Origin: a virus
Lineage: Duplodnaviria; Heunggongvirae; Uroviricota; Caudoviricetes
DNA length: 53,871 nt
Virus record (IMG/VR): IMGVR_UViG_2718218453_000001
Span: 1 to 53,871 of that record
Reading direction: 5' to 3' (one strand)
Part shown: positions 6,020 through 53,174 of the stretch, piece by piece
Layout: every line of letters begins with the position of its first letter
Numbering within the stretch: position 1 is the stretch's first letter
Notes under the pieces: generated by a model
The model's input: the letters and a program-made list of their open reading frames with translations, nothing else
What the model was told of the DNA's origin: nothing
The model's database searches: none
Program-made: the position numbers and the translations under genes

Positions 6020-8353
6020 TTATTTGATTGTTGGCTCATCGCACTTGGGTAGCCAGTCTGCATTACTTTCCTCTTTTAAAGTGAGGTTAGTCTGCATTCC
6101 CTGATTAGTTCGCCGTTTCTCATAATGTAGCCCGTACTCCTTCAGCATGACTGGCAACCCTTTGCCAAACATCGTAAGACTCAGGGTGTTTTTATATCCA
6201 TTAGCCTCCATGTATACGAGGTAGGCATGGTAAAGGTAGGTACGTGGCTGGCGTGGGACAATATTGGCGTTCCCCATAAACATGCCGTTGGTGTCAGGTA
6301 ATGCCTCAAGATAGCCACAAAAATCAAATGCTGGATCAGCATCACGCTTGATGGTGAGAGCCTCATCAGAATTCTGCTGCGACTGAAGCAATGTTCTGGC
6401 GCTCATCGGATCGCTGAAACGCTGCATGAGCTGGCGAACAATCACAGCCAGTTCTCGTGCAATTTTATCTTTCAGCTGCGGATCGCGTTCTTCCGGTGCT
6501 ATCTGCTCAGGAAAATGCAGAATAACTCTCCTGCGGGACACACCACCACTGCGATCAGTGAAGCGCATAGGATTATTATTTACGGCCAGGATAACCGCCG
6601 GAATATGTGTTGAATAAGCATTCTGATATTTGGGGTCCACCGATACCGCATCGCCACCAGTTATAGCCTTAAGCCCGGCGCCGTCGCCGCTCCACTTCTC
6701 CTGATCAGGCAGGCGAATAAGAGAAAAACCTATCAGAGCCGCACGTTCTCGCGGGGACTCCAGCGTTTCAATGGTCGCAGAGGTGGCGTTATCCTCTCCA
6801 GCAAGCATGGTCGCAATTTCAGCCAGAATACTTTTGCCACTTCCACCAGGGCCAGTCACTTCCAGAAAGAGCTGCCAGTCATAGCGATTCGCCAGCACCA
6901 TAAATAACGCCGCAAGAATAATGTCGCGTTTTTCTGGCTTGTGTCCGGCAGCCCGGTCCAGCCAGCGCCAGAATGCCGGGGCATGAGTTTCAAGCGTTTC
7001 CCCCTCTACCGGTGGCGTGAAATCGACTTCACACAGGGTACGCAGCCAGTTCTCTTTACAGTGCGGACTAAACAGCCCTGTTCGCGTATCGAGGACGCCA
7101 TTACGAAAACCGATCAGATGACGTGCCGGATTTTGCTGCTGCGGAACAATTAACTTTAATGTTTCCACCAGTGAAGCAATTTTTCCTGAGGAAAACGGTG
7201 CACCGAGGCGCTGGAAAAGGGCTGCGACATCTCGGGCAAAATCTGACTGAGAAATCACTTTCCACGCTCCAGACTCGTAGCGGGATAAAAGCTGCCCGTT
7301 CGGATCAACCGCCAGTGCATCCCTGTAATGCTCCCGAACCCTCTGAGCTTTTTCGCTGACACTCATCGCTGTGAATTCTGCTTCACTCATTGTGTCGAAA
7401 GGACTGGCGTTATGTGGCTTCAAAGCCTCAAGAATTGCCTTCCGGGTGGATTCCTCTCCGTATTGGGTAAGCGCATCATTCCAGTCACCAAAAACCGGTG
7501 GCTGCACAATGTCACACTGACACGCTTTTGCAGCAGTTTCAGCCCTGTTCTGGCCTGAACCATTCAGATCGCGGTCCGCTGCAATAATTAACTGATATCC
7601 CGGATACTTGTTATGGGCAACGCTGGCCAGAGAAAGAAAGTTGACCGACGAAAATGCCACCATGACGGCTTCTCCTGTCAGATGACGAATGGTAAGCGCC
7701 GTGGCGTAACCTTCCGCAATCCACATCCTTCTTACAGAACTCCCGCCCCCTTCTATCAGATGATAGGCCTCCTTAACCTGACCTCCTTTAAGAAAACACT
7801 TGCTACCATTGCCACTGATAAGCTGAATATTCACCAGTTCCCCGTCAGCGTTATAGAGCGGGACGATCAAATCACCGGGGTGGAACATCACCCCACCGGT
7901 TTTATGACCTGAAGTCAGCTCATGGCAAATATGCTCCGGGAAACCTTTATGTGTAAGATAAGTATTTCCGGCAGATTCACGCGAGGCTTGCAGTAGTCGC
8001 GCGGCAAGTGCTGCTGCCGCCTGTTTCCCGCCATCTGTATCTGCGGTTGACGTCCAGACTCCAGAAGAGGCTGAAGACAGACTATGTGTCAGTCCATGTA
8101 TCCTGTCTGCTGCTTCACTGATATCCACATTCAGTACCTTGCTGACAAGCGCTAAACCGTCCCCAGCCCCGCACTGGTTGCAGAACCATGTTCCACGTCC
8201 TTCCAGATCGTCGAAGCGAAAACGATCTTTACCGGCGCAGACCGGACAAGGCTGATGGCGATTTTTCAGTATGTTCATACCCAGCGCTGGCAAAATCCGC
8301 GCCCAGTGACCGCGGGCAGCCTTCACGGCCTGACTGACTTTCATTCCTGACAT
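6020..8353 (-). CDS. alpha: P4 alpha-like primase-helicase
   Basis: Zinc-binding primase motif CPVCAGKDRFRF...CNQCGAGDG, Walker A GPGGSGKS; 777 aa from the ATG at 8353 (GGGAG RBS upstream), same size as P4 alpha. Confidence 0.9.
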   Translation of the reverse strand: MSGMKVSQAVKAARGHWARILPALGMNILKNRHQPCPVCAGKDRFRFDDLEGRGTWFCNQCGAGDGLALVSKVLNVDISEAADRIHGLTHSLSSASSGVWTSTADTDGGKQAAAALAARLLQASRESAGNTYLTHKGFPEHICHELTSGHKTGGVMFHPGDLIVPLYNADGELVNIQLISGNGSKCFLKGGQVKEAYHLIEGGGSSVRRMWIAEGYATALTIRHLTGEAVMVAFSSVNFLSLASVAHNKYPGYQLIIAADRDLNGSGQNRAETAAKACQCDIVQPPVFGDWNDALTQYGEESTRKAILEALKPHNASPFDTMSEAEFTAMSVSEKAQRVREHYRDALAVDPNGQLLSRYESGAWKVISQSDFARDVAALFQRLGAPFSSGKIASLVETLKLIVPQQQNPARHLIGFRNGVLDTRTGLFSPHCKENWLRTLCEVDFTPPVEGETLETHAPAFWRWLDRAAGHKPEKRDIILAALFMVLANRYDWQLFLEVTGPGGSGKSILAEIATMLAGEDNATSATIETLESPRERAALIGFSLIRLPDQEKWSGDGAGLKAITGGDAVSVDPKYQNAYSTHIPAVILAVNNNPMRFTDRSGGVSRRRVILHFPEQIAPEERDPQLKDKIARELAVIVRQLMQRFSDPMSARTLLQSQQNSDEALTIKRDADPAFDFCGYLEALPDTNGMFMGNANIVPRQPRTYLYHAYLVYMEANGYKNTLSLTMFGKGLPVMLKEYGLHYEKRRTNQGMQTNLTLKEESNADWLPKCDEPTIK

Positions 8354-8367
8354 GATGCAGTTCTCCC

Positions 8368-8691
8368 TCAGTGTAAAACCGGCTTTATAATGTGACGGAC
8401 GCATAACTCATCCATTACGGCTATTCCGAGCTGGGAGAGTGCGGGGCAGGACATTAGAGGACCGGATTCCATCAGGTCTGAAAGCAGGGCGCAGGCGATT
8501 TCCATGCCTTTTGTTTGCCCGTGCTGTCGCAGATAAAAACCTTCAAGCTCACGGGCAATGGCGGTTTCAATTTCATCCAGAGTGAGCTGCAGGTGGCGGT
8601 TGTGCTGATGGCAGATACTCAGCCAGGCGCAGGCAACCGCGCGGCGATATAACGCCAGCCGAAGTGAGAGGGGAAGAGTGCGTGATTTCAT
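8368..8691 (-). CDS. Hypothetical protein (satellite regulatory region, Cnr-position)
   Basis: 107-aa ORF immediately upstream of alpha, co-directional; assignment by position only. Confidence 0.45.
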
Positions 8692-8915: not shown

Positions 8916-9463
8916 ATCACCTCCCCGGCAGGCAGCCGTGCAGAAAGGGAGAGCACATAATCACGGACCAGCGAAAGGCGTGCAAAGCGCTCATCGCAGG
9001 CCACGGTGCGAAGCATACAGATGCGGGGTTGAGTGTCAGCACGGCGGATTGCGGCAAGCACAAAGACATATTGCGGGTAAAACGGGGTGAGGGTTGTAGC
9101 CATGATGGCAGCCTCCATTGAGTAGCGGTTATTGCTACCACCGGAAACGCCAATTTCACTGGTGGCAGCCCGAACGGGGTTGGCGTAACCGGCCTCAATG
9201 GATACCGGCCAGCCCGAAGGCTGCCCCGCCCGGACTGCCATTATCTCGAAAGAACCACGGTGTACGCATAAACACCACAGCCTGGAAAATGGGTGTGCCA
9301 GAGCTTCGACGAAAAAAAAGACGCTTGGCGCGTCTGGTGTCGCCATTGAGTTTCGCGGAACGCCAATTCCGGCTGCCGATTTTGCGGCAGCGGAAAAACT
9401 ATACCTGGAAATGACTGCAGGATGCAAGCCAGAAAAATGGGGATTAATGCGTTCAGGCATCAT
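8912..9463 (-). CDS. Hypothetical protein, start uncertain
   Basis: ORF coupled to the alpA stop; N-terminal half has odd composition, so the true start may be internal (for example [10 protein letters not shown]...). Confidence 0.35.
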
Positions 9464-12639: not shown

Positions 12640-13038
12640 ATGGATGCACTGCATGTCGCGCTTGAAAATCTGATTAGAGATGATGGTCAAACACTAAATA
12701 GTTATTTTAGTGAAGTTAAAGTTAATTCATTGATTGAAAATACAAATGCAACTTGTCATTTTCATTGCCTTAATCTTGATGGCAATGGACGTCCTCGGGT
12801 AGACGCGTTAATCCAATTCTTGAACGATAAAGTAGTTGATTATGCTATTCCAAGGAAAAAAATCAATGAGGCAGTGCAATATTTTAATGAAACACAATCA
12901 ACAGCGAAAATAACAAAATTAGCAAATCAAGCAAAAAATTATTTACTAGGCTTGCAAATAGTGGCGAAGGCGGTGAATTTATTCTTTTTTTATTTGCAGA
13001 GCAATTCCTTAGATTTCCACAAATTATTTGCAAAATGA
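12640..13038 (+). CDS. Hachiman HamA-like protein, N-terminal part (possibly one gene with next ORF)
   Basis: AT-rich 132-aa ORF; ends in ATGA overlap with the next ORF; a T7 homopolymer at 12985-12991 lies where the two frames are both open. Confidence 0.45.
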   Translation: MDALHVALENLIRDDGQTLNSYFSEVKVNSLIENTNATCHFHCLNLDGNGRPRVDALIQFLNDKVVDYAIPRKKINEAVQYFNETQSTAKITKLANQAKNYLLGLQIVAKAVNLFFFYLQSNSLDFHKLFAK

Positions 13039-13580
13039 GCCTGAAAACGAGTTCTCAAATGCATTACCATGGTGCAGATGGAATACATATAGGCGTAGAT
13101 AAAGATAATAAAAAATTATGTTTATACTGGGGCGAGTCTAAACTCTATTCCAATCTGAGCAAAGGTATTTCTGAGTGTATGGATAGTATAGCTCCATTAC
13201 TTCAAAGTTCTATGGGAATAGAAGGCGCTGAGACACGTGATATGCAGTTGCTGGAGTCGCACTTAAATGTTGATGATATAGAACTAGAACAAGCGTTGAA
13301 AAGATTCTTAGATCCTGATAGCCCGGATTTTAATAAATTGGAATACAGAGGAATATGCTTAGTTGGGTTTGATCTTAAAGATTATCCACAAGGGCCCAGT
13401 TCAATTGATATCAGTGAACTAGTTGCTTTGATTAATACTAAAGTCGGGAAATGGTCAACTAGTGTGCAAGGTGGTATAGTTAATAAAAAACTTGATCGCT
13501 TTGCTATGCATGTTTTTATTCTTCCTTTTCCTTCAGTAAAAGCATTTAGGGCTAGTTTAATTAAAGCATTGGAGAGTTGA
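13035..13580 (+). CDS. Putative PD-(D/E)xK-type nuclease module (HamA-like, C-terminal part)
   Basis: 181 aa; motif GVDKD...LCLYWGESK resembles a D...ExK nuclease core; stop 2 nt before the helicase ATG. Confidence 0.5.
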   Translation: MSLKTSSQMHYHGADGIHIGVDKDNKKLCLYWGESKLYSNLSKGISECMDSIAPLLQSSMGIEGAETRDMQLLESHLNVDDIELEQALKRFLDPDSPDFNKLEYRGICLVGFDLKDYPQGPSSIDISELVALINTKVGKWSTSVQGGIVNKKLDRFAMHVFILPFPSVKAFRASLIKALES

Positions 13581-13581
13581 A

Positions 13582-16164
13582 ATGTCGTTGCGAGATTTAT
13601 CTGGGTGGTTGATTAAGAATCAAGGATTCTTAAGAAAATATCAGGCATTAGTCGCTAACTCGATAAAAGATCAATTTCCAGAGTTAAAATCAGATGTAAT
13701 CCCACAGATTAGTTCTGAGGATGTCGGCTATCTTTTAACATGTGCTAGTTCTTTGGCTTTCTCAAGTGATGAGAAATGCCAAGATGCAGCCTTAAGGATT
13801 GCACAGTATTGCTTATTGAATGAAAAAAGTGAAGCAAGAAAAGATAGTGCTGCATTAATTCTTGATTCATTATCTAATAATCCAGCAATACAACTTGCTG
13901 AAAATAGGGGGTATCTTAACCCTGATTTCGAAGAAAGATTACCCTTAAAGGCTCAGTTAGAACTAACTAAAAGAAAAATTCTATATACAATTGAAATAGA
14001 TGCTGATAAGCATATTTATGCTAATAGGTTTCAATCAGAGTTTTGGGATGCGGTACAAGAAAACTCATGGGTTAGTGTCTCTGCTCCTACCTCTGTAGGA
14101 AAATCATTTATCCTGGAATCTTGGGTGGAGCAGTTTGTAAAAAGAAATAAGAATTGCTTAGTTATTTATATCGTACCAACAAGGGCATTGATTTCAGAAG
14201 TATATTCTGAGTTGCAAAAACGTTTGGATCCTAATTTAACAAATATAGTTAATATTCAGACACTACCATTGAGTAATGTATACCAGAGCGAAAAATCTAA
14301 TGTCTTCATATTTACACAGGAAAGATTAAATTTATTCTACAATCATTTCTCACAAATTCCAAAGATAGACGTCTTAGTTGTTGATGAAGCACACAAGATC
14401 GGTGATGGTGGAAGAGGTGTTATTCTTCAACATGTAATTGAACTGACTTGTCTAAATAACCCTGATTCAAAAGTTATCTTTGCAAGTCCTTTCACCTTAA
14501 ATCCTGAAATATTGCTCAGTGATGCTCCAATATTAAAAAACAAAAGAACTATAAAAAGTGACTATGTTACAGTTAATCAAAATTTAATATGGGTAGAACA
14601 AAAACCACGCAAGACCAAAGATTGGTTGATGTATTATTTTGCAAACGGTGAAAAACGCGAGTTAGGAAACTTTTCTTTAGAAAATGCACCATCTCCTGAA
14701 AGTAAAAGATTGCCTTTTGTAGCTCTTTGTTTAGGTAAGGGGGCTTCTGGTAACGTAGTTTACGTAAATGGAGCCGCTGAAGCAGAATCTACTTCCAAGC
14801 TAATATCTGCAAGTATAGAAAATGAGACTGAGGATGAAGAAATTTTAGCTCTCGTTGAGCTTAGTGAGACAATTATACATAAAAATTTCGCATTAAATCG
14901 CACTCTAAAAAAGAGAGTCGCTTTTCATTATGGCAACATGCCTTTAATAATAAAGGGCGAGATTGAACGATTGTTTAGTAAAGGTAAGATTGATTTTTTA
15001 ATTTGTACCTCAACTTTAGTTGAGGGCGTAAACATGGCTTGTAAAAATATTTTTATAAGAGGCCCTAAAAAGGGTAATTCAACCCCGATGCGAGAAGAGG
15101 ATTTTTGGAATCTTGCTGGCAGAGCTGGTCGTTGGGGAAAAGAATTCCAAGGTAATGTCATCTGCATCGATAGCGACAATGAAAAAATTTGGAATGGAGA
15201 GCCTCCAAAAACCAAAAAAAATATATTTATAACTCGCGCCACGGATGCTATTTCCCATGACATGGATAAGTTGGTTTCCTATATTTTTTCAGAGCATCAT
15301 TTTGGTATGTCTGAGCGGAATCCTAATCTCCAGAGTCTATTTAGTTATTTATGTTCATCATTTTATTTTTATAATGGCTTGGATAATAATCCTTACATGG
15401 AAAAGTACAATATAAAAAATATCGATGTTTTAAATGAAGCAATATTTGATGTTTTTGATTCTTTAACTTTTCCACACGAATTGGTTGTGCGGCATCCTGG
15501 TATAAGCCCGCTTTTAATGCAAAACCTTTGGGATAGATTTTCGCGGGATACAAACAAACCTGTAGAGAGATTACTGCTTTCTGAACCTGGTAGTAATGAT
15601 GCGTTAGATTCATATGTATCCGCATTCTCTAGAATTAGTGATACTCTGAGTAAGAAGCTAGGTTATAATTCAAAAGGAGCTTACGTACAGGCCTTGTTAG
15701 TTTCCAAGTGGATGAAAGGTTATCCCCTAGCAAGATTGATCTCGGATAGAATAAGATATAACAAAAAGAAAAATATTGTTTTCAAAGAAGCGACTTTAAT
15801 ACGAGGGGTTATGAAGGATGTTGAAGAGATCGCTCGCTATCAAGCTCCAAGGCTTTTAGGATGTTATAATGATTTATTAAAAAGCTTTTATCTTTCGATA
15901 GATCGCACAGACTTAGCAAAAGATGTTGAAGATATCGGTGTTTATTTAGAACTGGGTGTAAGTTTAAAAACTCAGATTTCACTAATAGGGCTTGGCTTTT
16001 CAAGAACTGCTGCTGTAATGATTTCAGAGCTTATTCCTAATGATAGTTTAGATGAGGAAGAATGCATTAATTGGATTAAGGACAATAAAGTTGACATGGA
16101 AGAACTGCCACAATTAGTTCAAAACGAAATACATAATATATTTCGTAACTTTTGGGTACAATAG
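13582..16164 (+). CDS. SF2 (Ski2/Lhr-like) helicase, Hachiman HamB-like
   Basis: Walker A APTSVGKS, motif II VVDEAH, motif VI NLAGRAGRWG, C-terminal RecA-like block FHYGNMP...ICTSTLVEGVNMACKNIFI; 860 aa, AT-rich. Confidence 0.8.
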   Translation: MSLRDLSGWLIKNQGFLRKYQALVANSIKDQFPELKSDVIPQISSEDVGYLLTCASSLAFSSDEKCQDAALRIAQYCLLNEKSEARKDSAALILDSLSNNPAIQLAENRGYLNPDFEERLPLKAQLELTKRKILYTIEIDADKHIYANRFQSEFWDAVQENSWVSVSAPTSVGKSFILESWVEQFVKRNKNCLVIYIVPTRALISEVYSELQKRLDPNLTNIVNIQTLPLSNVYQSEKSNVFIFTQERLNLFYNHFSQIPKIDVLVVDEAHKIGDGGRGVILQHVIELTCLNNPDSKVIFASPFTLNPEILLSDAPILKNKRTIKSDYVTVNQNLIWVEQKPRKTKDWLMYYFANGEKRELGNFSLENAPSPESKRLPFVALCLGKGASGNVVYVNGAAEAESTSKLISASIENETEDEEILALVELSETIIHKNFALNRTLKKRVAFHYGNMPLIIKGEIERLFSKGKIDFLICTSTLVEGVNMACKNIFIRGPKKGNSTPMREEDFWNLAGRAGRWGKEFQGNVICIDSDNEKIWNGEPPKTKKNIFITRATDAISHDMDKLVSYIFSEHHFGMSERNPNLQSLFSYLCSSFYFYNGLDNNPYMEKYNIKNIDVLNEAIFDVFDSLTFPHELVVRHPGISPLLMQNLWDRFSRDTNKPVERLLLSEPGSNDALDSYVSAFSRISDTLSKKLGYNSKGAYVQALLVSKWMKGYPLARLISDRIRYNKKKNIVFKEATLIRGVMKDVEEIARYQAPRLLGCYNDLLKSFYLSIDRTDLAKDVEDIGVYLELGVSLKTQISLIGLGFSRTAAVMISELIPNDSLDEEECINWIKDNKVDMEELPQLVQNEIHNIFRNFWVQ

Positions 16165-16196
16165 TCTTATTTAGACGATTTTTTAAACAATCAATA

Positions 16197-16245
16197 GAGA
16201 AGTTTTTGAATTTTATCATTCTTCCAGTAACAAAAACTTCTCTTT
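16197..16245. terminator. Bidirectional hairpin between convergent genes
   Basis: Perfect 13-bp inverted repeat AGAGAAGTTTTTG / CAAAAACTTCTCT. Confidence 0.5.
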
Positions 16246-16256
16246 TATAACACCGC

Positions 16257-16715
16257 TCAGGCTATTCCAGAATAGGCTTTGCTTACTTCACTATGCCTTG
16301 TGCCGCAATGCCTCAAAATAACAAGGCCATGTTGCAGTAACGCCTCACTACGTTCAGGTTCAAACCATTTCCCGTTAAATTTTCCTCCGTGAAAAAGATT
16401 GTTTCTTACACGGCGGATTAACAAAAAAAGAAATTTTGCTAAATCTTTTTCTTGTGGTAAAGAATCATCCCAAACTAAAGAGTCATCTTCTATGATTTGT
16501 TTTTTGGGTGGGTGTTCTTTAAAGTAGGTGATAGCAGCAATTAGCTCTGGATCAGTTGTGTTATTTATGATTTCAGAAACTTGCTTTGCATACTCATCCC
16601 AGTTCGCTTTAGCATCTTTTATTTTATGATGAAGTCCACATGCCTTAAGGCAATATTCATAACGTGAAAACTCTCTAAAGAATTCATAACATAAATTATC
16701 TAGATTATTCTCCAT
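16257..16715 (-). CDS. HEPN-motif protein (putative RNase-type abortive-infection or toxin component)
   Basis: 152 aa, AT-rich; R-x4-H motif RNNLFH near C-terminus; GGAGAT RBS; downstream of and co-directional with int. Confidence 0.55.
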   Translation of the reverse strand: MENNLDNLCYEFFREFSRYEYCLKACGLHHKIKDAKANWDEYAKQVSEIINNTTDPELIAAITYFKEHPPKKQIIEDDSLVWDDSLPQEKDLAKFLFLLIRRVRNNLFHGGKFNGKWFEPERSEALLQHGLVILRHCGTRHSEVSKAYSGIA

Positions 16716-16744
16716 GAACTATATCTCCATGTATAACAAGTTAA

Positions 16745-17944
16745 CTAATATTGATTGCGCTCGTACACTTTTTGGCCCCACCAATTCATAAGTCCTATTC
16801 GTTGCTCAAGGTAAGTTGAACGATTATATGCTCTGCGCACTTCATTTTTATCACTATGTGCAAGAGCAGCCTCAATTACATCTGCATTAAAACCCGCTTC
16901 ATTTAATGCGGTGCTGGCAATTGAACGCAATCCATGAGCAACCAATCTACCACCAAATCCAATCCTTTTTAAAGCAGCATTTGCCGTCTGGCTATTCATT
17001 GGTTGCTTTGGGTCATTCCGACTCGGGAAAACATGTTCACGATGGGCACTGATTAGCTTCATCACATCAAGAATCTCTAATGCCTGAGGAGATAGAGGGA
17101 CTATGTGTTCCCGCTTAGCCTTCATTCGTTCAGCTGGGATAGTCCAGAGCTTTGCATCGAGATCGAGCTCAGCCCACCTAGCACCGGAAGCCTCAGAAGG
17201 ACGAACTAGAGTCAGGAGTTGCCACTCAATGAGGCAGCGAGTCGGAACAGACAAATTTGACATGACGAGAGAACGCATCAGCATAGGCAATTCTTCTGGG
17301 CGCAACGTAGGCATATTTTGTTTTTTTGGCTTCTCAAAGGCCATTCCAATGCCTGATGCTGGATTGGCATCAATAAGACCAGTATTTACGGCATAAATCA
17401 TTATCTCGTTAACACGCTGCACCAACCGGCGCACCGTCTCCAGCGCCCCACGAGCTTTGATCGGTTCAAGGGCTTCAACCAGTGTTCGGGCTTTGATTTG
17501 CTGGACAGGGATCTCCCCGATGGTGGGGAATACGTCTTTTTCCAGTGAACGCCATATATCTTTAGCGTAATCATGGGTAACGCTTTTGCTTTTGAGCTGG
17601 AACCAGTTAGCGGCGACCGTCGAAAAAATACTGTCCAGAGCGATTTGCTGCTGTTCCTCTGCAACTTCAGCTTGAATTTGCGGGTCGATTCCGTTGGCTA
17701 ATAGGGCAAGGTAATCTGCTCTTAACCCTCGGGCATCAGCAAGAGAAAGGGCAGGAAAAGCACCAAGTCCCATCATAGTCCGCTGTTTTGTTGCTGGGCG
17801 TTGATAGCGAAAGCGCCAGAGTTTCTTGCCGCTAGTTTTCACTATCAGGAAAAGCCCATCGCCATCATGCAGCGTTAGATCCTTCTCTAACGCTTTCGCG
17901 CGCAGAACTTCGGTGTTGGTCAGGGGGCGTGTTGTCCGTGCCAC
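16745..17944 (-). CDS. int: P4-type tyrosine integrase
   Basis: 399 aa; N-terminal MARTTRPLTNTEVLRAKA...DGDGLFL typical of P4/CP4-57 IntA-like integrases; adjacent to ssrA core copy. First codon is GTG. Confidence 0.9.
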   Translation of the reverse strand: MARTTRPLTNTEVLRAKALEKDLTLHDGDGLFLIVKTSGKKLWRFRYQRPATKQRTMMGLGAFPALSLADARGLRADYLALLANGIDPQIQAEVAEEQQQIALDSIFSTVAANWFQLKSKSVTHDYAKDIWRSLEKDVFPTIGEIPVQQIKARTLVEALEPIKARGALETVRRLVQRVNEIMIYAVNTGLIDANPASGIGMAFEKPKKQNMPTLRPEELPMLMRSLVMSNLSVPTRCLIEWQLLTLVRPSEASGARWAELDLDAKLWTIPAERMKAKREHIVPLSPQALEILDVMKLISAHREHVFPSRNDPKQPMNSQTANAALKRIGFGGRLVAHGLRSIASTALNEAGFNADVIEAALAHSDKNEVRRAYNRSTYLEQRIGLMNWWGQKVYERNQY

Positions 17945-18128: not shown

Positions 18129-18173
18129 TGGTGGAGCTGGCGGGAGTTGAACCCGCGTCCGAAATTCCTACAT
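18129..18173 (-). repeat. 45-bp direct repeat of ssrA 3' end (att core)
   Basis: TGGTGGAGCTGGCGGGAGTTGAACCCGCGTCCGAAATTCCTACAT identical to 52812-52856. Confidence 0.9.
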
Positions 18174-18258
18174 ACTATCTTAACTATAACAAAAACAATG
18201 ATTTGCTTTTTAAAACAGTAGGTTGGTATTACTCGGTGTTTGTTCATTTTACTCGTTT

Positions 18259-19212
18259 TTAATGCTCTGCCGCCAAAGTGCCGCCAGTCTTTCTTGAATC
18301 TTCTAATGCTTCATGATCTTTAATTAGTACCTTCAACGAGTTAATTACTTTAATTTGGCATTCCTTAATTAAGTCAGGTAATTTTTCATCAATCTTTGTT
18401 TCTTTTGAATAGAATAAAGTTCTGTTAATGCAATTTTCCAGTCCTCCACTCTCATTCAAATCGGGGAATAGTACAAATCTCCCAAATGCAATGCCATTTT
18501 CCACTTCAACATATACCTTTGGGTGCTCATCTATATAACCGTGGTGAATTATATGATTTCGTAATGATGTTACAGTGTTTATAAAATTGCTATTTTCAAA
18601 TATGGTATCCGTTGTTGTCGAAAAAACTAATTCTTTATAGTTGCCGTATAATTTATTTTTGGATATTAATTTCTTGTATTTAGAGATTGGGAAGTTACTC
18701 TTTAATAATTCAAAGGAGATTTTAGTAACGTAGTCAAACAAACTATTCATTTTTATAAATAGCATGCTTAACAAAGAAAATAGCAAGCTTGTTTTTGGCG
18801 ATTTTGCTACTAAAATCCCTTTAAAATCTTTGTCTGGTGTGGTTATTAACAAATCGCTCCAGAGTATTTCATAAAATTGTTGCGCTATAACAGAGAGTTC
18901 CAAACTACACTCTGTTATATATGAAATTAAGACTTCACAGTCTTGGATGTAAAGAATGTTTGAATCAAAAAATTGCGTTAATTTATTAAAAGTGTTTTTG
19001 CAAACTTGAGATTCCGAGTTATGACCAACATCTCTGATAGTGTAAATGTTAGATTCTTCGGCGATGGAAATCCTTTCTTTTATTTTATCGAAAATTGCAT
19101 ACAGGGCTATACTTAGATTTTCGATTTCATATTGTTCGTTTGTATAGATGATGTTATTCATCAGATCACTTCCTATTTCTATAATGGAGTTAGAGGTTTT
19201 TTGTAACTGCAT
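18259..19212 (-). CDS. Hypothetical protein, partner of RES-like gene (cargo)
   Basis: 317 aa, strongly AT-rich, ATG with AAGAGG RBS, 33 nt downstream of the RES-like gene. Confidence 0.65.
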   Translation of the reverse strand: MQLQKTSNSIIEIGSDLMNNIIYTNEQYEIENLSIALYAIFDKIKERISIAEESNIYTIRDVGHNSESQVCKNTFNKLTQFFDSNILYIQDCEVLISYITECSLELSVIAQQFYEILWSDLLITTPDKDFKGILVAKSPKTSLLFSLLSMLFIKMNSLFDYVTKISFELLKSNFPISKYKKLISKNKLYGNYKELVFSTTTDTIFENSNFINTVTSLRNHIIHHGYIDEHPKVYVEVENGIAFGRFVLFPDLNESGGLENCINRTLFYSKETKIDEKLPDLIKECQIKVINSLKVLIKDHEALEDSRKTGGTLAAEH

Positions 19213-19245
19213 CCTCTTAATACTCTACCGCCAAAACGCCGCCAC

Positions 19246-20457
19246 TTAAGGCTCAAGATAATCATGCTTCATCATTTTATGAATTAACAATTGAACTTTT
19301 TTGAATGAGGTATTATTGTAATATTCCACTAGCGATTCATCAAAATCTTCAATTGTACCTGATGCTGGAGTTGGTCCTCCCATTATGAGTCTATCTTCAT
19401 CCATACCATCGGTCTTGACGTTTAAAGTGCTAAATACTTGCCATGAAACAGGTTTGGTAAATTTAAATATATTTAGTAAGTGTGGGCAGTAATCATAACC
19501 AGAATCCAAAATATTATCCATTTTAGGTGGCATGATTATATTAATACCAATATCACTATCTTTTTGATTGAGAATTTTAGTCGTGCGATAAGCGATACCG
19601 GCTATGCCCTTATTTTCATTGCTGCTGAGCCATTGCATAAGAAGGTTGGGGATTATGTACTCAGGGTTGAAACTAGAGTTTTTATGTTGTTTTGTATAAT
19701 TACAGGCTAACACAAGTGGCCAGGAAATTAAGTTCGAAATGACCCTATTCATAGTTCCTTCAGTATCATTATCTAACAGCCATGCTAAGGTGTTTATGTT
19801 CAATGCTGATCTCAAATTATAACCAAGGTTAAGTATTCTATGTGATGAACCAGACTCTGTGATGAATGAAGATACATATAATTTATCAAAGTCTGGTTTT
19901 TCCATTTCTTGCCAACATACAAAAATAGAGGTTCCTAAATATAAACAAGGAAGGCCTGAGACTGAGTATCTTTGTGCATTCACAAGATAACGTTTAGAAA
20001 AAGGAATATGAAAGATATCACGCCTTTCTTTTATTATTTGATCGCTTTTTCTTACGCGAAATAGAGGTTTTCCAGGATGACAAAACACACTTAATGGAAC
20101 GGACATATTATAGATGTGGTCATTTATATTTGTCTTGGTGATAGCGTGATCAAATGTTAGGTAAGATTCTTTGATTTTACCGTTTAAATATAATCTAAGT
20201 GTTTCTGAAATTTTATCCGAGAGTGTTTTTGTGCTTTTTATTTTTGATTTTATTTCACGAATTACAAGGTTGTGAGGGTTTTTACTGTAAATCTTGTTTA
20301 TGACTTCTAGGTAACATTTAACCCTATTGTTAAAATCTTTAATGATATTATTTCCCGCGAGATAAGGAGCTTGTAATAGTGGTTTGGACTCTATTTCGAA
20401 TAATATTTCATTAAGCATTGCTACATAATCTGTGGTACTAATTTTATTAATTTTCAT
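19246..20457 (-). CDS. RES-domain-like protein (cargo)
   Basis: 403 aa, AT-rich; segment QRYSVSGLPCLYLGTSIFVCWQEM resembles the RES-domain core (Arg ... Glu); starts 4 nt after int stop. Confidence 0.65.
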   Translation of the reverse strand: MKINKISTTDYVAMLNEILFEIESKPLLQAPYLAGNNIIKDFNNRVKCYLEVINKIYSKNPHNLVIREIKSKIKSTKTLSDKISETLRLYLNGKIKESYLTFDHAITKTNINDHIYNMSVPLSVFCHPGKPLFRVRKSDQIIKERRDIFHIPFSKRYLVNAQRYSVSGLPCLYLGTSIFVCWQEMEKPDFDKLYVSSFITESGSSHRILNLGYNLRSALNINTLAWLLDNDTEGTMNRVISNLISWPLVLACNYTKQHKNSSFNPEYIIPNLLMQWLSSNENKGIAGIAYRTTKILNQKDSDIGINIIMPPKMDNILDSGYDYCPHLLNIFKFTKPVSWQVFSTLNVKTDGMDEDRLIMGGPTPASGTIEDFDESLVEYYNNTSFKKVQLLIHKMMKHDYLEP

Positions 20458-20461
20458 TATG

Positions 20462-21481
20462 TTAAATCGCTAGTGATGATAAAGGGTTTTTTGTTACAGC
20501 ATCTTCAAGATGCTCAGGTGAAAAATGAGAATAGACCATAGTCATTTTTATATCTGAATGGCCTAAAATATCTCTTAGTACAAGAATATTCCCTCCATTC
20601 ATCATAAAGTAACTGGCGAATGTATGGCGCAAGACGTGGGTACATTGTCCCTCTGGCAAGTCGATACCAGCTCGTTTAACTGCACGCTCAAAAGCTTTTC
20701 TGCATGGGGTGAATAACTTCCCTCTGTTCTTGGGGAGTTCGTCATACAGATCCTGAGATATCGGCACGGTACGGTTTTTCTTGCCCTTCGTCTTGGTATA
20801 AGTGATGCGGTATTTTGATAACTGATGGCCCTGCAGGTTTTCTGCTTCACTCCACCGCGCACCAGTAGCTAGGCATATTTTTGCAATCATCAGCAGGCTG
20901 GGGCTTTGAGAATCCGCGCAGGCATCCAGCAGGCGTTTAATTTCTTCTGGGGTCAGGAATGCCAGTTCACCCTCTGCGATTTTGAATGTTGGCAGACCGG
21001 CGAGCGGGTTAGGGGCTGACCAGTGGCCCAGTTTTTTCAGAGTCCCAAAAACTGATGATAGGTTGCGTTGTTCGAGGTTTACCGTTCGGGGCTTAACTGG
21101 CGACATAAGCGCGCCATCTTCATTTCGCACTTCACCTTTTAATCGCGCTTCACGGTATTTCGTAAAATCTCCGGCGGTCAGCTCTGAGGCGATAGGGTCG
21201 CCCAGGCCATTACAGATAATTCTAAGTTTCGCCATCAGGCGTTTGGGGTCTGCGAGCGTCTGCCCGTATAGTGAGTGCCATTGCTCTATCACTTCTGACA
21301 GATGCCGCCGATCTTCCTTTTCCCCCAGCCATGGTTTTTTGTTTACTTCATCCATGGTGAAGTTTTCGAATGCTACGGCTTCGCCTTTCGTCGCAAATTG
21401 CTTGCGCACGCGCTTGCCGTCCCGCCCGTTAGGGTAGCACTCACACAACCATTTTCCGTTCGGCTGTTTACTGATGGTCAT
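20462..21481 (-). CDS. int: P2/186-type tyrosine integrase
   Basis: 339 aa; C-terminal HVLRHTFAS...ILGHSDIKMTMVYSH catalytic motifs; position next to the repressor gene. Confidence 0.9.
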   Translation of the reverse strand: MTISKQPNGKWLCECYPNGRDGKRVRKQFATKGEAVAFENFTMDEVNKKPWLGEKEDRRHLSEVIEQWHSLYGQTLADPKRLMAKLRIICNGLGDPIASELTAGDFTKYREARLKGEVRNEDGALMSPVKPRTVNLEQRNLSSVFGTLKKLGHWSAPNPLAGLPTFKIAEGELAFLTPEEIKRLLDACADSQSPSLLMIAKICLATGARWSEAENLQGHQLSKYRITYTKTKGKKNRTVPISQDLYDELPKNRGKLFTPCRKAFERAVKRAGIDLPEGQCTHVLRHTFASYFMMNGGNILVLRDILGHSDIKMTMVYSHFSPEHLEDAVTKNPLSSLAI

Positions 21482-52811: not shown

Positions 52812-53174
52812 TGGTGGAGCTGGCGGGAGTTGAACCCGCGTCCGAAATTCCTACATCCTCGGTACTACATGCTTAGTCAGTCTTTACATTCGCTTGCCAG
52901 CTGCGGACGGACACGCCACTAACAAACTAGCCTGATTAAGTTTTAACGCTTCAACCCCAGGCAGGGCTTCCACGCGATCTCTTTTGGGTTTGACCTCTCT
53001 TGATCCCCGTCCTAAGAGCGGAGGCTAGGGAGAGAGGGCTCTAAGCAGGTTATTAAGCTGCTAAAGCGTAGTTTTCGTCGTTTGCGACTATTTTTTGCGG
53101 CTTTTTACGAGGCCAACCGCCCCTCGGCATGCACCTTGGGTTTCGCAAATCCCGTCGAATCCAGAATCAGCCCC
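52812..53174 (-). ncRNA. ssrA: tmRNA (SsrA)
   Basis: Reverse complement gives GGGGCTGATTCTGGATTCGACGGG at the 5' end and ...GGACGCGGGTTCAACTCCCGCCAGCTCCACCA at the 3' end, matching the enterobacterial tmRNA sequence as recalled; 363 nt. Confidence 0.95.

Follow-up and report, generated by a model that had tools for sequence, protein, structure and literature searches.

ORF152, a small protein encoded beside the integrase of a P4-like satellite, represents an undescribed family that very probably belongs to the HEPN superfamily

Introduction

What is the role of a 152-amino-acid protein that is encoded between the integrase gene of a P4-like satellite and a Hachiman operon, with no evident partner gene at its side? 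The main hotspot for defence genes in P4-like satellites is the interval from the psu-delta-sid operon to int (PMC9122126; PMC13586616), and uncharacterised cargo of this hotspot is often defensive, as found for six of eight randomly chosen unknown P4 loci in PMC13586616. The gene considered here, ORF152, lies in a stretch of 53,871 nucleotides of DNA that is called the window below. An initial annotation had noticed an R-x4-H motif in the protein and proposed that it is a HEPN protein. According to Anantharaman et al. (2013; PMC3710099), HEPN domains are four-helix bundles, often with an insert between helices 2 and 3, that carry an R-x4-6-H motif with a polar residue (N, D or H) right after the arginine; the motif is placed at the end of helix 3, entering the loop to helix 4, and an acidic residue further upstream, usually within E-x3-[KR], lies in helix 2. 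The locus thus raises two questions, namely whether ORF152 belongs to this superfamily and whether it acts by itself, with a partner, or as part of the neighbouring Hachiman system.

Results and discussion

ORF152 is hotspot cargo of a P4-like satellite

The host element is a P4-like satellite integrated at ssrA. Its genes follow the order alpha primase (6020..8404), DUF5375, an Icd/Ash-like gene, and C4 RNA plus isrK, and then sid, psu, delta, hamA, hamB, ORF152, int and att(ssrA). The C4 antisense RNA (9158-9245, 84.6 bits) and isrK (9314-9391, 76.7 bits), both found on the minus strand with Rfam, mark the satellite immunity region, while the int-proximal end of the satellite is marked by an att core at 18130..18174 (plus strand), in which 45 nt from the ssrA 3' end are duplicated. 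The P4-type tyrosine integrase (16745..17944, minus strand; domains Arm-DNA-bind_3, Phage_int_M and Phage_integrase) is directly upstream of ORF152 and co-oriented with it. ORF152 accordingly falls within the psu-delta-sid to int interval of a P4-like satellite, and the placement given in the initial annotation, between a P4-type integrase gene and a Hachiman-like operon, is correct.

ORF152 occupies 16257..16715 on the minus strand, begins with ATG and encodes 152 amino acids. As described initially, it is AT-rich: its GC content is 0.359 versus 0.484 for int and 0.48 for the whole window, and in this respect it is like hamA and hamB (0.35). The stop codon of int and the start of ORF152 are 29 nt apart on the same strand, and this spacer holds a Shine-Dalgarno sequence, GGAGA (16723..16727, minus strand), 7 nt before the ATG, which is kept in loci L001 and L005. 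A promoter scan near ORF152 was negative, and the gene is probably transcribed with int or just after it.

The window protein is exactly RefSeq WP_016809720.1, named "hypothetical protein", and carries the automatic UniRef name "Apea-like HEPN domain-containing protein". The exact protein is present on at least 1000 contigs of Escherichia, Klebsiella and Salmonella, and ORF152 occurs in 19 of 5426 complete E. coli genomes. In a rough comparison with a 92%-identical copy we counted 18 synonymous and 14 non-synonymous codon differences, which would fit purifying selection.

Identical copies of ORF152 were always arranged as int-ORF152-hamB-hamA in ten sampled contexts. Between the window and a Raoultella satellite, identity is 95% for hamA/hamB, 91.3% for int and 91.7% for ORF152, whereas psu, sid and delta gave only fragmentary alignments of 73-83%, so the block of cargo plus int moves between otherwise divergent satellites. 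ORF152 is like int in its divergence and like hamAB in its base composition. It shares its location, its low GC content and rapid swapping among satellites, phages and islands with other cargo of the P4 psu-int hotspot (Rousset et al., 2022; PMC13586616). The family was not found among the systems listed or tested in the available text of Rousset et al. (2022) and PMC13586616, and our literature search found no report of phage protection for it. Two entries of Rousset et al. (2022) that are similar in name, 'Putative HEPN' and 'HEPN-TPR', are different, larger proteins.

Conservation and predicted fold make ORF152 a probable member of the HEPN superfamily

Shuffling ORF152 produced an R-x4-H in 31% and an RN-x3-H in 2% of the shuffled sequences, so an R-x4-H in a single sequence proves little, and its meaning comes from conservation. 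We therefore looked at the family. A word-indexed search detected 696 homologues, and a profile search of a library of 50%-identity representatives returned 2027 clusters at E <= 1e-3, 1518 of them at E <= 1e-10. They come from Gamma-, Beta- and Alphaproteobacteria, Acidobacteria, Binatia, Deinococcota, Nitrospinota and others. Nearly all members are 150-170 aa long, and the domain is therefore the whole protein; longer forms are rare, and one of these is a real fusion to an Mrr_cat restriction-endonuclease domain.

The putative catalytic R-x4-H of ORF152 is RNNLFH (R104-N105-N106-L107-F108-H109; codons at 16389..16406, minus strand), in which the arginine is followed by a polar asparagine. 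The second HEPN signature, E-x3-K, is formed by E20-Y-C-L-K24 (codons at 16644..16658, minus strand; motif definition in PMC3710099). Among the positions that are invariant in 30 diverse members are F16, R18, E20, L23, K24, W39, P70, Q73 and W82 in the first part of the protein, and R102, R104, N105, L107, F108, H109, G110, G111, K112, F113, N114, W117, P120 and S123 further on. Across 134 cluster representatives with 29-50% identity to the window protein, R104 and P70 are invariant, and E20, K24, N105, H109, G110, G111, K112 and R122 are at least 90% conserved. The family signature can be written as E-x3-K ... RRVRNNLFHGGKFNG-WFEP-RS. The R-x4-H noticed initially is thus a near-invariant R-N-x3-H of the family.

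A confident AlphaFold2 model built on the family alignment (pLDDT 88.9, pTM 0.87) predicts a helix at 92-108 with RNNLFH at its C-terminal end, a loop at 109-119 and a further helix at 120-140, as would be expected for the position of a HEPN motif. Short helices and a beta-hairpin are inserted between the first long helix and helix 92-108. E20-x3-K24 agrees with E-x3-[KR]; since the model places it in its first long helix, the numbering of the helices is uncertain, and the canonical first alpha-hairpin of the HEPN bundle is not evident.

Searches of curated collections were less telling. Pfam, NCBIfam and PADLOC gave no usable match for ORF152 (matches to PADLOC Cas8c at E ~0.01 are noise), and the only PHROGs match was phrog_19013, of unknown function. 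Foldseek found no matches for the model in PDB and BFVD, a profile of the 30-member alignment found nothing relevant in PDB, and hhalign of the family against three HEPN-bearing neighbours, each as a single sequence, returned nothing informative. With the profile of the 134 representatives, the best PDB matches were to the HEPN domain of Csx1-Crn2, with E values of 0.19-0.33 that are not significant and cover the motif region only. In that alignment ("vrrVRNNLFHGGKfn / VKGWRNSVAHGGRAN"), R104 and H109 fall on R401 and H406 of Csx1-Crn2, which coordinate a phosphate-mimicking acetate in the catalytic centre (PMC11317161). ORF152 very probably belongs to the HEPN superfamily: the initial proposal is supported by the conserved R-N-x3-H and E-x3-K and by the position of the motif in the model, but not by Pfam, NCBIfam, PADLOC or Foldseek, and in PDB only below threshold.

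The lack of a significant match to a curated family and the negative Foldseek search would also suit a non-enzymatic protein, in which a helical fold with a conserved basic patch binds nucleic acid or a nucleotide, or helps integration or excision, and the R-x4-H is structural. The gene directly follows recombinase genes in several elements, and non-catalytic HEPN binders exist (PMC3710099). Such binders, however, typically lose R-x4-6-H (PMC3710099), whereas R, N and H are nearly invariant in the ORF152 family, and the model shows no helix-turn-helix or excisionase-like fold. Integrases, moreover, account for merely 4 of the 110 immediate neighbours described below. We consider a non-enzymatic role improbable, and the more specific role of excisionase or integration helper was rejected on the fold, the GC content and the rarity of integrase neighbours.

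The family is distinct from known HEPN systems

The UniRef name points to ApeA (PF18739), a single-protein HEPN tRNase that, like ORF152, is a single gene and is found in P4 hotspots (HEPN_Apea in Table S1 of Rousset et al., 2022). ApeA, however, has an N-terminal domain of ~300 aa (ApeA-NTD1), for which ORF152 has no room. Pfam HEPN_Apea (PF18739) matched one of the 30 diverse members, at E 0.044, its gathering score was reached by none of the 30, and the window protein had no match at E <= 10. With the Pfam threshold unmet and a length of 152 aa that is too short for a 300-aa N-terminal domain, we rejected ORF152 as an ApeA or Apea-like HEPN protein. Another single-protein HEPN defence, DARNA (PD-T7-3), has a 300-aa C-terminal domain by which it assembles into a dodecamer and senses SSB-bound ssDNA; ORF152 lacks a domain of this kind and had no match in PADLOC.

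HepT (HEPN-MNT; PDB 5yep, 7ae2 and 8xdj) is always paired with an AMPylating MNT antitoxin, and the ORF152 family is not. The family also differs from HepT in having no Pfam HEPN/HepT match, an extra insert of its own (small helices and a beta-hairpin with PPKKQ) and a long conserved HGGKFNG-WFEP-RS loop. With CARF-HEPN effectors (Csx1/Csm6; Csx1-Crn2, PDB 8y6z), R-N-x3-H-G-G-[KR]-x-N aligns residue for residue, although the match is not significant. Unlike Csx1-Crn2, the family has no CARF sensor, HTH, Crn2 domain or CRISPR context, and ORF152 has 152 aa as against 444-563 aa. The ORF152 family is a distinct, undescribed one that falls outside the Apea, HepT and CARF-HEPN families. The superfamily, the hotspot and the automatic HEPN label in UniRef were already known; what is new is an uncharacterised family within a known superfamily.

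The likeness to the HEPN domain of the type III CRISPR protein Csx1-Crn2 bears on one further reading, in which ORF152 is a counter-defence HEPN protein: by destroying cyclic-oligonucleotide immune signals or a defence RNA of the host, it would shield the element or its helper rather than the host. Depletion of cyclic oligoadenylates is stated for some HEPN domains (DARNA preprint), and the carriers of the family are phages, satellites and plasmids. Against this, the PDB match is the non-significant one described above, confined to the motif region, and there is no CARF or ring-nuclease domain; the neighbours are defence genes rather than anti-defence clusters, and the slots are documented for defence cargo. 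A counter-defence role of this kind appears highly improbable to us.

No conserved partner accompanies the family

For the genomic context we took 80 loci from one-genome-per-species collections and added closer homologues, giving 88 loci in which the ORFs within 6 kb were clustered. No neighbour family was present in more than five of the 78 non-redundant loci, and the initial observation that ORF152 has no obvious adjacent partner thus applies to the family as well. The 110 immediate neighbours, annotated with Pfam and PADLOC, are heterogeneous: they include integrases (4), ResIII helicases (3), a resolvase, an IS66 transposase and GIY-YIG, as well as GmrSD, type IV restriction enzymes, Drt8, HEC-05, PDC candidates and housekeeping genes. 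A nucleotidyltransferase was absent from the 25 most frequent of 97 neighbour Pfam families, and the neighbours in the window are int and hamB. A HepT-MntA pair was rejected, as there is no adjacent MNT gene and no conserved neighbour in the 78 loci.

The elements that carry homologues are just as varied. In 12 E. coli genomes, a P2-like prophage carries a homologue between its genes for tail-fibre assembly and for the tail sheath; a defence hotspot within P2-like tail genes is reported in PMC13586616. A resolvase-DUF2188-ORF island by ybaA holds a homologue in E. coli, Pantoea and Phytobacter. A lambdoid prophage at icd has one in its att-int region, and in an Enterobacter prophage the homologue follows a serine recombinase gene and a DUF2971 gene. 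Others are in the tail module of Mu-like E. coli phages (29% identity) and on 4.9-6.1-kb plasmids of Citrobacter, Enterobacter and Klebsiella. On the Citrobacter plasmid pNFYY328-6 (4942 bp), rep is followed by a gene for a 157-aa hypothetical protein and, last, by a 49%-identical homologue, and ccdAB is present on this plasmid as well. The 157-aa protein shows no relation to the ORF152 family and no Pfam match.

In 53 of 74 loci the homologue and the gene upstream of it point the same way, and in 33 the two are within 60 nt of each other or overlap; these counts are approximate owing to longest-ORF calling. This arrangement could be expected if ORF152 were a partner-dependent HEPN subunit, relying on the upstream gene or on a protein encoded elsewhere, for example as a heterodimer with a HEPN-bearing Abi protein in which it is co-effector or brake. 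The tightly coupled upstream genes include Abi_C, AbiJ_NTD4, HATPase_c_3 plus Hypoth_Ymh (with an RNPISH motif of its own), AbiEii+WYL, an AAA_13 ABC ATPase, DUF4365, DUF2971, a DNA methylase and an unannotated family of 485-525 aa. The first three of these, which are HEPN-type proteins, and the rare Mrr_cat fusion are further points for a partner. However, the upstream genes are mutually unrelated, and co-orientation of about 70% is unremarkable in bacterial genomes. The sole co-oriented upstream gene in the window is the integrase gene, and in the P2-like prophage tail-gene locus and on a Klebsiella plasmid the homologue forms a unit by itself. That the catalytic residues are strictly conserved, in addition, opposes a reading in which ORF152 is a mere inhibitor. 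Dependence on a partner therefore seems unlikely to us, albeit not negligibly so.

Two sets of loci are worth recording here. In several Alpha- and Betaproteobacteria (L024-L026, L022, L053/L059), the homologue overlaps or closely follows a larger gene that has a HEPN-type domain of its own (AbiJ_NTD4, Abi_C, or HATPase_c_3 plus Hypoth_Ymh); these loci are possible HEPN-HEPN two-gene modules, and with three upstream types that carry HEPN-type domains no general rule emerges. The uncharacterised 485-525-aa family is the most frequent single neighbour family; it occurs in Rhodobacterales and relatives, and in five loci (L040, L041, L044, L052 and L055) it ends 1-4 nt before the start of the homologue or overlaps it. 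Its member in L044 has no Pfam match.

The same survey bears on whether ORF152 could be an addiction or stabilisation toxin that serves the mobile element rather than acting against phages, held in check by an unrecognised antitoxin in the form of a small RNA, a tiny ORF or a factor in trans. Neither an MNT gene nor any other conserved neighbour was found, the gene has merely 29 nt upstream and 92 nt downstream, and the 4.9-kb Citrobacter plasmid already has ccdAB. Between 15800 and 18300 there are no tandem repeats and no Rfam RNA, which speaks against an RNA antitoxin near the gene and led us to reject a type III toxin-antitoxin or AbiF-like system. We regard an addiction role as rather improbable.

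ORF152 is probably insulated from the neighbouring Hachiman operon

The operon next to ORF152 is a true type I Hachiman. The helicase gene hamB (13582..16164, plus strand, 860 aa) is convergent with ORF152, and its product matches PADLOC HamB1 at E = 0; hamA (12640..13580, plus strand), encoding the DUF1837 nuclease of Hachiman, is split into two ORFs by a 1-nt deletion, and HamA was matched in two consecutive pieces. It is a different system from the structurally studied ECOR31 HamAB, with which we compared it.

Between the convergent stop codons of hamB and ORF152, the initial annotation had placed a bidirectional hairpin. An inverted repeat is indeed found in the 92-nt spacer, at 16193..16246 (no strand), with a 13-bp perfect stem, 16-nt arms that are 94% complementary and a 22-nt loop. 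Compared with shuffled sequence, the fold has z = -2.7 and -3.6 on the two strands. Between the window and the Raoultella copy the stem is fully conserved and the loop varies, in a spacer that as a whole is only 83.5% identical. The hairpin is not a canonical intrinsic terminator: its loop is longer than such a terminator allows, G-C pairs are few in the stem, and it is absent from the terminator scan output. It is likely a two-way transcription stop or an RNA-stabilising element, and ORF152, insulated by it from the convergent operon, is not part of Hachiman.

We nevertheless weighed whether ORF152 could be a third component or regulator of the window Hachiman. An accessory module that modulates Hachiman has a precedent in PezAT with streptococcal Hachiman (PMC13064477), the hamA-hamB-ORF152-int block is 91-95% identical between E. 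coli and Raoultella/Enterobacter satellites, and the GC content of ORF152 is as low as that of hamAB. But the orientation is convergent with the hairpin in between, ORF152 has no PADLOC Hachiman match, and HamB adjoins the family in one island type only among the 78 loci. Other P4 hotspots hold DUF1837 plus DEAD/Helicase_C/ResIII alone (table in Rousset et al., 2022), and ORF152 has diverged like int (91.7% versus 91.3%) and unlike hamAB (95%). An extra Hachiman component was rejected on the orientation, the PADLOC result and the single island type, and we judge an accessory role of any kind to be extremely doubtful.

The state of the Hachiman genes provides a further argument. In the window, the two hamA ORFs (12640..13038 and 13035..13580) result from the loss of one A from an A7 run at about 12933-12938; in E. 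coli strain 190, hamA is intact (313 aa) and otherwise identical over the aligned 1 kb. The split is either a real inactivation of Hachiman or a homopolymer sequencing error. Other loci with an identical ORF152 have an IS (DDE_Tnp_1) in hamB (L111), an IS1 truncating hamA (L113), a hamA truncated to 227 aa (L114) or a hamB of 851 instead of 860 aa (L106 and L114). Since HamAB is damaged beside an intact ORF152, HamAB is not needed for cells to tolerate ORF152, and this tolerance argues against a toxin-antitoxin relation between the two. Defence pseudogenes have been reported to be rare in P4 elements, which makes the repeated damage unexpected and suggests a fitness cost of Hachiman beside ORF152. 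P4 elements with more than one defence system have likewise been reported to be rare, about 1%, and the satellite can be flagged as unusual in having two cargo modules in its P4 hotspot.

A proposed model for ORF152 as a minimal HEPN effector

Starting from the gene, its conservation, its motifs and predicted fold, its mobile-element context and the absence of a conserved partner, we propose that ORF152 is an autonomous minimal HEPN RNase with a dimeric composite site, carried as independent cargo of a defence slot and acting as an abortive-infection or exclusion effector; we give this proposal about an even chance of being right. By analogy with HEPN proteins that keep the motif, the activity would be metal-independent RNA cleavage. 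Two copies of ORF152 would dimerise so that their R104/N105/H109 motifs form a composite site, with E20 and K24 nearby. The enzyme would damage RNA upon phage infection, as an effector of the abortive-infection or exclusion type. Its gene is independently mobile cargo and belongs neither to Hachiman nor to the integration machinery. A role in defence is plausible.

The weak point of this proposal is regulation. The single-protein HEPN defences that are known have large domains for sensing, and the minimal HEPN toxins are paired with MNT antitoxins, whereas the ORF152 family has neither a sensor domain nor an antitoxin. One solution would be a narrow substrate: a HEPN protein without sensor and partner might spare bulk host RNA and cut an immune signal, or a particular RNA of a defence system or a phage, which would explain why no antitoxin is needed. 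Such a substrate could be, for example, a cyclic oligonucleotide, or else a tRNA or sRNA that a rival element uses, and ORF152 would then be a portable tool of counter-defence or of warfare between elements. We regard this variant, including the example substrates, as very improbable.

If active, ORF152 would rank among the smallest known HEPN effectors that are mobile with neither antitoxin nor sensor domain, and the means by which such a protein is restrained, or its narrow substrate, would be a new regulatory solution in HEPN biology. The catalogue of P2/P4 hotspot cargo would likewise gain a very compact module. What lifts the family above routine cargo is the combination of an intact catalytic signature without any control element, and its abundance and promiscuous mobility.

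A second HEPN-like motif in the window

A P2-family prophage lies at 18175-52811, flanked by the duplicated att core on one side and by the true ssrA (tmRNA, 52812-53174) on the other. With P2-like phages of E. coli and Klebsiella it shares ~94% identity across 76-79% of a 24-kb probe, and a potential helper phage and a P4-like satellite are therefore in tandem at one attachment site. Directly after the P2-like integrase gene (20462..21481) and before the att core, the prophage has a two-gene cargo of low GC content (30-36%) at 18259-20457 on the minus strand. Its products, of 403 aa (phrog_7835) and 317 aa (phrog_31026), were matched in neither Pfam nor PADLOC. The location of this pair matches the minor int-att defence hotspot described for P2, and with SLRNHIIHHG the 317-aa product supplies the window with a second RN-x3-H (HEPN-like) motif.
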